Below are positions 27,767 to 27,965 of a DNA stretch of 64,000 nt, piece after piece (position 1 is the first letter of the stretch; every line of letters starts with the position of its first letter). The stretch is from Escherichia phage T4. Under the pieces are notes generated by a model, which made no database searches, had not been told where the DNA came from, and worked only from the letters and a program-made list of their open reading frames with translations. The position numbers and the translations under genes are program-made. The stretch lies in sequence record MZ375356.1, one strand, 5' to 3'.

Positions 27767-27957
27767 TTACCTCACATAATTTTCTTCAAGCCAATCAATA
27801 ACATCCAACGCATTATCAAAAGTTGAACCATCTACTCTGTCTTCTGTTTCATAATCAAGAACATCTGCCTACTCTTCCGTCAACAATAGGCCATAGACAA
27901 AATAGATATTTCTTTTCTTTTTCAATTTTATCACAAAGACGATAAATCTTTTCTAGG

Positions 27958-27965
<8 letters not shown>
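27767..27965 (-). pseudogene. cd.4: cd.4 with internal frameshift
   Basis: ATG overlapping cd.5 stop gives [32 protein letters not shown] then stop; ...ADVLDYETEDRVDGSTFDNALDVIDWLEENYVR continues in next frame; span 199 nt = 201-2. Confidence 0.55.

Follow-up and report, generated by a model that had tools for sequence, protein, structure and literature searches.

Small deletions break the reading frames of cd.4, frd.2, frd.3, gene 30.6 and other dispensable genes in a T4 phage passaged in the laboratory

Results

Frame-broken remnants of small T4 genes

The sequence analyzed here, referred to as the window, is a stretch of 64,000 nt from record MZ375356.1 of Escherichia phage T4, and positions are given in window coordinates unless marked as T4. 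The loci under study are four small genes on the minus strand, cd.4, frd.2, frd.3 and gene 30.6, for each of which it had been proposed that an ATG with a good ribosome binding site opens a short reading frame that stops early and resumes in the adjacent frame. Together with two further damaged genes on the same strand, cd.3 and gene 30.2, they occupy the following positions:

21658..22486, minus strand: gene 30.2 remnant, with four 2-bp deletions
23331..23617, minus strand: gene 30.6 remnant, 287 nt (2 mod 3), with a 1-bp deletion (one T of a T5 run) at 23505/23506
27493..27764, minus strand: cd.3 remnant, adjoining cd.4, with two 2-bp deletions (AA and AA) at 27721 and 27728
27767..27965, minus strand: cd.4 remnant, 199 nt (1 mod 3), with a single 2-bp deletion (AG) at 27866/27867 (T4 133717)
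40277..40656, minus strand: frd.2 remnant, 380 nt (2 mod 3), having lost TT at 40535/40536, TCT at 40425/40426 and TT at 40325/40326
40702..40927, minus strand: frd.3 remnant, 226 nt (1 mod 3), with a single 2-bp deletion (AT) at 40888/40889

Alignment to wild-type T4, which had been named beforehand as the deciding comparison, shows intact open reading frames at all four loci and no such short frames in the reference, confirming that the loci are frame-broken in the window. The finer details of the original prediction fared less evenly. A single break per locus is indeed found in cd.4, frd.3 and gene 30.6, but frd.2 has two frame breaks and has in addition lost one Glu codon (the TCT deletion). 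Likewise, the expected locus length of 1 mod 3 is seen in cd.4 and frd.3 but not in gene 30.6 or frd.2, and the loss in gene 30.6 amounts to 1 bp and not 2. The boundaries first given for cd.4 and frd.3 stand as listed above, whereas those for gene 30.6 (23332..23617) were off by one and those for frd.2 (40314..40656) were too short, ending at the stop codon that follows the second shift and missing the last 12 codons, which lie in the third frame.

In the cd.4 remnant, the 33 N-terminal codons are read in frame 0 and the remainder of Cd.4 is present, unchanged, in frame +1, so that the predicted product has 36 aa versus 66 aa for the intact protein. In the frd.3 remnant, the frame meets a stop after 13 codons. 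All four intact proteins match conserved families of unassigned function over their full length: Cd.4 matches phrog_2360, gp30.6 matches phrog_2153, Frd.2 matches PF03197 (FRD2) and Frd.3 matches PF05798 (Phage_FRD3). Gene 30.2 is a case of repeated damage to one dispensable gene, and the two AA deletions of cd.3 lie 9 bp apart in T4 coordinates. A similarity search with a 2.2-kb piece around cd.4, which is 99.7% identical to T4 records and spans 2207-2208 reference bases, with several bases missing, returned no phage record carrying the cd.3 or cd.4 deletions.

Differences between the window and wild-type T4

The window corresponds to phage T4 from position ~105,284 to the end of the record and then from 1 to ~2,200, and over its full length it is collinear in gene order with NC_000866.4 and MT984581.1, at 99.6-99.8% identity. 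Compared to NC_000866.4, it presents 66 substitutions, 63 small deletions and 13 insertions. About 50 of these 66 substitutions and several of the indels are errors of that old reference (adjacent base swaps, indels in the uvsW/uvsW.1 region and an N at 135,175), and they vanish when the comparison is made with MT984581.1, a modern T4 resequencing that was therefore used as the reference for window-specific differences. Relative to MT984581.1, the window carries 16 substitutions, 57 small deletions, a few insertions, three larger deletions and one 32-bp duplication. Errors in the old reference were accordingly rejected as the source of the small deletions, since 57 are left after the switch. 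Their sizes are predominantly 2 bp (39 deletions), followed by 3 bp (11) and 1 bp (7); the 46 deletions of 1-2 bp go along with the disruption of about 23 genes. The claim that the four breaks belong to a window-wide pattern is thus borne out.

Relationship to two clones probably derived from the CiPGr experiment

The three larger deletions have the following junctions:

4932..4939: hoc deletion junction; ~571 bp lost, 8-nt imperfect minihomology, common to T4_7t1
60628..60637: ndd.2a to ndd.5 deletion junction; ~342 bp lost, perfect 10-nt minihomology CTACTACCGC, private to the window
62511..62523: rIIB-rIIA deletion junction; ~857 bp lost, 13-nt imperfect minihomology, a lineage marker

Among 498 matching phage records, only OL964735.1 and OL964745.1 match the rIIB-rIIA junction at 100%, and OL964745.1 is the sole match for the hoc junction. 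In IMG/VR, an exact junction 25-mer had no match, and none was obtained for three truncated proteins private to the window when these were looked up by exact sequence. Both records are titled 'Mutant Escherichia phage T4 clone' and correspond to clones T4_3t3 (OL964735.1) and T4_7t1 (OL964745.1). T4583L locus tags appear in the annotation of both, and the smallest T4 mutant of the CiPGr study was named T4_583L by Yuan et al. 2022 (PMC9825161). That work (Yuan, Shi, Jiang, Ma 2022, Nucleic Acids Res 50:13183, PMC9825161) took T4 through as many as ~600 passages on E. coli harboring SpCas9 and an sgRNA/donor library. Every plasmid of the library encoded an sgRNA together with a donor of 2 x 50 bp, meant to remove either 100 bp or an entire gene. 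The design skipped structural and known essential genes and used at most 8 spacers per gene; sequencing was by Illumina with de novo assembly (PMC9825161). The authors described 1322 unplanned deletions of one or two bases leading to premature stops, in T4 only and also in population reads, and tentatively suggested CRISPR escape as their explanation (PMC9825161).

At the rIIB-rIIA junction, T4 168,752 is joined to 701, fusing the N-terminal part of rIIB to an rIIA truncated near codon 495. The fusion recalls the classical rIIA-rIIB fusion deletions such as r1589. Since all three clones carry this deletion, the early T4_3t3 among them, it arose early or was present already in the laboratory stock. 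The small deletions form a nested pattern of shared and private events: 29 are common to the window and T4_7t1, 27 occur in the window only and 16 in T4_7t1 only, and T4_3t3 has one. Eight substitutions are also common to the window and T4_7t1. Among the four loci, the breaks of frd.3 and gene 30.6 and, in frd.2, the TCT deletion and the TT deletion at 40535/40536 occur in T4_7t1 as well. The 3'-most TT deletion of frd.2 (40325/40326) and both deletions of cd.3 are private to the window, as is that of cd.4, which is missing from T4_7t1 and T4_3t3. One 3-bp loss breaks this nested pattern: AGT, within an AGTAGT tract at 60822 (T4 167,044), is deleted in the window and T4_3t3 but not in T4_7t1, which points to a recurrent hotspot or to recombination between lineages in a mixed population.

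Judged by the junctions and mutations that it shares with both clones, the window is a sibling clone from the evolving population of T4_7t1 and T4_3t3. T4_3t3 presents 100-bp deletions in cd.3 and arn.2 that fit the designed cassette-100 edit; on these and on the T4583L tags, the two deposited clones probably belong to the CiPGr study. No designed 100-bp or whole-gene deletion is found within the 64-kb window, where the only large deletions are those of ~571, 342 and 857 bp.

Several repeat-associated changes and further deletions were recorded in the course of these comparisons. A 32-bp tandem duplication of CCATAAAGCTTTATGCTTGTAAACCGTTTTGT, private to the window, lies at 40974-41037 in the intergenic DNA between frd.3 and gene 32, downstream of gene 32. 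Upstream of uvsY, near oriF (~9517), a 10-bp tandem repeat of TGTTATTGGA has gained two units (+20 bp) in the window and three in T4_7t1, its length having changed independently in the two at a replication-origin/promoter region. Within segE (6455-6495), the 9-bp repeat TGGTGGAAT has grown by one copy, to 3 instead of 2, and 3 bp have been deleted, which BLAST renders as a messy cluster of changes; a different 3-bp deletion is found at this spot in T4_7t1. Outside the span of the window, T4_7t1 (OL964745.1) has three large deletions of ~2,046 bp each, at T4 42,789-44,833 (nrdG-nrdD), 55,541-57,586 (nrdC.11-mobD.1) and 62,777-64,822 (vs.3-vs.8), whose near-equal sizes are odd.

Distribution of small deletions over gene classes

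Frame-disrupting indels were identified in segD, hoc, segE, uvsY.-1, 30.2 (four), 30.6, 30.7, 30.8 (two), 31.2, cd.3 (two), cd.4, I-TevIII, I-TevI, frd, frd.2, frd.3, segG, arn.1 (three), 52.1, ac, ndd.1, rIIB (two) and rIIA (four or five), as well as in short intergenic spacers. The essential genes, which cover 26 kb, hold none of the 52 (P=4e-12 under uniform placement), genes being counted as essential according to established T4 genetics. The 16 kb of non-essential genes with known function harbor one of the 52, and that one is a difference of MT984581.1, not a mutation of the window. Both the A/T content (0.63-0.66) and the number of tandem-dinucleotide sites are alike across gene classes; hence, composition does not account for the avoidance of essential genes. 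The density of small deletions is ~2.5 per kb in intergenic DNA and in dispensable coding sequence alike, and the small deletions inside essential genes of the window are exclusively in-frame losses of 3 bp:

14530, plus strand: gene 29 (essential, baseplate), in-frame 3-bp deletion of TTA
47970, plus strand: gene 34 (essential, tail fibre), in-frame 3-bp deletion of TAA

This absence of frameshifts from essential genes indicates real mutations in a viable, selected phage, unlike read or assembly errors. It had also been anticipated that the pattern would extend to genes of unknown function. Such genes are included, but the pattern is better described as one that hardly reaches beyond dispensable genes (homing endonucleases, hoc, rII, ac, frd and small ORFs) and intergenic DNA. 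It can therefore be read as a map of dispensability under passage conditions, in which inactivation is tolerated in cd.3, cd.4, 30.2, 30.6-30.8, 31.2, frd, frd.2, frd.3, arn.1, ac, 52.1, ndd.1, hoc and rII, and also in the seg, mob and I-Tev endonucleases. Kept in frame within the window are alt, nrdA/B, pseT, rnlA/B, denA/B and all structural and replication genes.

Regarding substitutions, all 13 that lie outside already-disrupted genes alter an amino acid. Six non-synonymous changes are located in tail-fibre genes 34-37, at 48482, 49525, 50577, 53495, 53536 and 53542 (gp34 P1177L, gp35 D232V, gp36 P189L and gp37 N937S/I951V/Y953H), with those of gp37 clustering near the receptor-binding tip; they probably represent adaptation to the K-12 passage host. 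Missense changes common to the window and T4_7t1 are gp48 T48I, RnlA Y298H and NrdB P50S (14980, 30726 and 33723). Together with the frd frameshift at 39540, NrdB P50S could alter dNTP pools.

Repeat signature of the small deletions

The sequence context of small deletions was analyzed in a pooled set of 145 distinct events from the window and the complete T4_7t1 genome, which by itself differs from wild type by 117 small deletions (78 of 2 bp and 26 of 3 bp) versus 30 substitutions. At least 1 nt of slack (microhomology) is present at 127 of the 145 pooled deletions, versus ~70 expected, leaving 18 without microhomology where ~75 would be expected. The deleted tracts have a GC content of 9% and are usually (AT)2-4, A3 or T3 losing two bases, or (TAA)3. 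At equal microhomology, AT-only tandem sites were struck in 22 of 676 instances, versus 0 of 410 for sites containing G/C (p=5e-5). In tolerant DNA, approximately 25% of the longest AT tracts have been struck, so that a slippage model needs a very high rate. The rate of small deletions appears to be orders of magnitude above the normal spontaneous rates of T4.

A lesion in the replication machinery was considered as the origin of this rate. No change is present in genes 43, 44, 62, 45, 41, 61, 32, 59, dda, uvsX, 46, 47, rnh and 30 of T4_7t1, and these 14 unchanged replication and recombination genes rule against a polymerase or replisome mutator. More speculative mutator candidates are, through nucleotide pools, the frd knock-out and nrdB P50S common to the window and T4_7t1, and, in T4_7t1, the dam and nudE knock-outs and gp39 I159V. 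Equally speculative as a cause is error-prone repair after repeated sublethal Cas9 attack.

Discussion

The frame breaks in cd.4, frd.2, frd.3 and gene 30.6 are laboratory-acquired deletions that turn these genes into pseudogenes, a phenomenon that has already been published. In the reading that we favor, with a probability of roughly 85%, the window comes from a T4 of the CiPGr lineage in which genuine, heritable deletions of 1-2 bp are tolerated in dispensable genes and have a slippage-type origin, as opposed to escape at Cas9 sites. By this account, single units of very short, A/T-only repeats would be lost through a process of the replication-slippage type, acting genome-wide, untargeted structural genes and intergenic DNA included, and far above the normal rate. 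Selection and hitch-hiking would follow, rather than site-specific escape from Cas9 cleavage. Deletions of 1-2 bp persist because the genes hit are dispensable under passage, and they are purged from important genes, leaving only 3-bp in-frame losses in essential ones. The window is consequently to be regarded as an engineered or laboratory-evolved T4 derivative and not as a natural genome, and its frame breaks should not be taken for natural pseudogenes, recoding signals or assembly errors.

Whether the breaks are real at all is the first matter on which explanations differ. Many small indels relative to a reference are the usual look of a poor assembly, and part of the difference from NC_000866.4 is in fact error, albeit error in the old reference, as the drop from 66 to 16 substitutions against the modern resequencing makes plain. 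Errors of sequencing or assembly in the window itself would nonetheless not spare the 26 kb of essential genes from frameshifts and leave only in-frame deletions there, nor would they consist mostly of 2-bp losses in place of homopolymer errors of ±1. Moreover, 29 deletions are identical base for base in the independently assembled T4_7t1, and T4_3t3, from the same pipeline, has just one. Given also that sequencing was by Illumina and that such deletions are seen in population reads (PMC9825161), error is a very improbable source. The homopolymer or long-read variant of this model was rejected on the predominance of 2-bp losses, the avoidance of essential genes and the Illumina data. Even less credit is due to the notion that the short frames are small genes in their own right or mark places where frameshifting is programmed. 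It is true that each truncated frame opens at an authentic ATG with a ribosome-binding site, but wild-type T4 records have uninterrupted frames at all four loci, the intact proteins match conserved families along their whole length, the breaks vary between sibling clones, and programmed frameshifting would require two shifts in frd.2.

Granted that the deletions are real, the passage experiment itself offers two further origins. One is that they were copied, by T4 or lambda-Red recombination, from error-bearing donor arms synthesized on chips. Plasmid-borne lambda-Red, as on pCas-type plasmids, may be induced by arabinose. Arabinose was added to the CiPGr library cultures, and only ~42% of the cloned cassettes were exactly as designed (PMC9825161). 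There is also a weak excess of deletion pairs ~50, 100 and 200 bp apart, recalling the 50+100+50 donor geometry (P=0.0006, post hoc), but this spacing signal fails unbiased tests (window scan, P=0.32; Rayleigh periodicity scan, P=0.36). Errors in donor arms should strike any base; the observed deletions, by contrast, nearly all take repeat units out of A/T-only microrepeats. Untargeted structural genes are hit as well, and the designed 100-bp deletion expected alongside arm transfer is missing from the window. We hence regard this origin as improbable. The other is the CRISPR escape suggested by the CiPGr authors, whereby each small deletion would inactivate one of the library's protospacers, by destroying its PAM or seed, and be positively selected by Cas9 cleavage. 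In its favor, small deletions have been reported only in T4 passaged on Cas9/sgRNA-library hosts (PMC9825161), they cluster in genes eligible for targeting, and T4 is known to escape Cas9 via deletions (Wu et al. 2021, PMC8262927). At one I-TevI site, furthermore, two sibling lineages have each independently lost 3 bp (CAT and CAG, side by side) within positions 8-13 of a protospacer that adjoins a CCN, although that site is itself a (CAN)3 quasi-repeat that could be a slippage hotspot. Against a null matched for deleted k-mer and gene, and counting all NGG sites as possible targets, seeds (33 versus 33.0 expected) and protospacers (40 versus 42.4) are hit as often as expected, and cut sites/PAMs, likewise over all NGG sites, are not enriched (9 versus 20.5±3.6 expected). 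Seventeen of the 57 window deletions fall outside every possible SpCas9 target, and there is no preferred offset within ±170 bp of NGG cut sites. The 10 deletions in mobB outnumber the spacers designed for any one gene (at most 8). Intergenic DNA is hit too, as are structural genes 29, 34 and 48, none of which was part of the CiPGr design. The escape events described for T4 are either substitutions or deletions spanning tens to hundreds of bp and flanked by 3-13-nt minihomology, not 2-bp losses (PMC8262927). Taken together, the NGG-site nulls and the A/T-microrepeat signature favor a slippage-type, deletion-biased process over escape at Cas9 sites, which we consider unlikely.

The small deletions are thus not preferentially located at possible SpCas9 sites, which leaves the CRISPR-escape suggestion unsupported at site level, and what novelty remains resides in the -2 A/T-microrepeat signature. 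We tentatively put forward, as a possibility that we deem rather doubtful, that T4 entered a distinct hypermutation state during Cas9 (possibly lambda-Red) passage, one independent of Cas9 sites, biased to deletion and acting by -2/-3 losses at A/T-only microrepeats, orders of magnitude faster than normal. Such a state might stem from altered nucleotide pools (frd knock-out, nrdB P50S), or from recombination-dependent replication that becomes error-prone after Cas9 has repeatedly bound or cut the genome at sublethal levels. If the proposal is true, hypermutation combined with selection would amount to a fast engine of pseudogenization that maps dispensable DNA at single-gene resolution.

Streisinger-type slippage frameshifts were classically defined in the lysozyme and rII genes of T4. 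The deletions of the window resemble them in the loss of one unit from short tandem repeats, in the strong enrichment of microhomology and in the presence of some repeat expansions. They differ in their extreme deletion bias, with 57 deletions in the window to one or two expansions, in favoring -2 even within A3/T3 runs, which is atypical of classical slippage, and in the near-exclusive use of A/T tracts. With the CiPGr mutants, the window has in common the T4 backbone, the rIIB-rIIA junction and, as in T4_7t1, the hoc deletion and 29 small deletions, along with unplanned losses of one or two bases that produce premature stops; it departs from the deposited clones in its 27 private small deletions, its private ndd.2a-ndd.5 deletion and its private 32-bp duplication. 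Lastly, T4 can escape CRISPR through UvsX-dependent end-joining at minihomologies of 3-13 nt (Wu, Zhu, Tao, Rao 2021, mBio, PMC8262927). The small deletions of 1-3 bp are unlike those escape mutants, being far smaller, without preference for possible Cas9 targets and associated with only 1-8 nt of repeat slack. The three larger deletions (~342-857 bp) are alike in their 8-13-nt minihomology and in removing non-essential genes, and on this comparison the hoc, ndd.2a-ndd.5 and rIIB-rIIA deletions look like products of the minihomology end-joining seen in T4 CRISPR escape.
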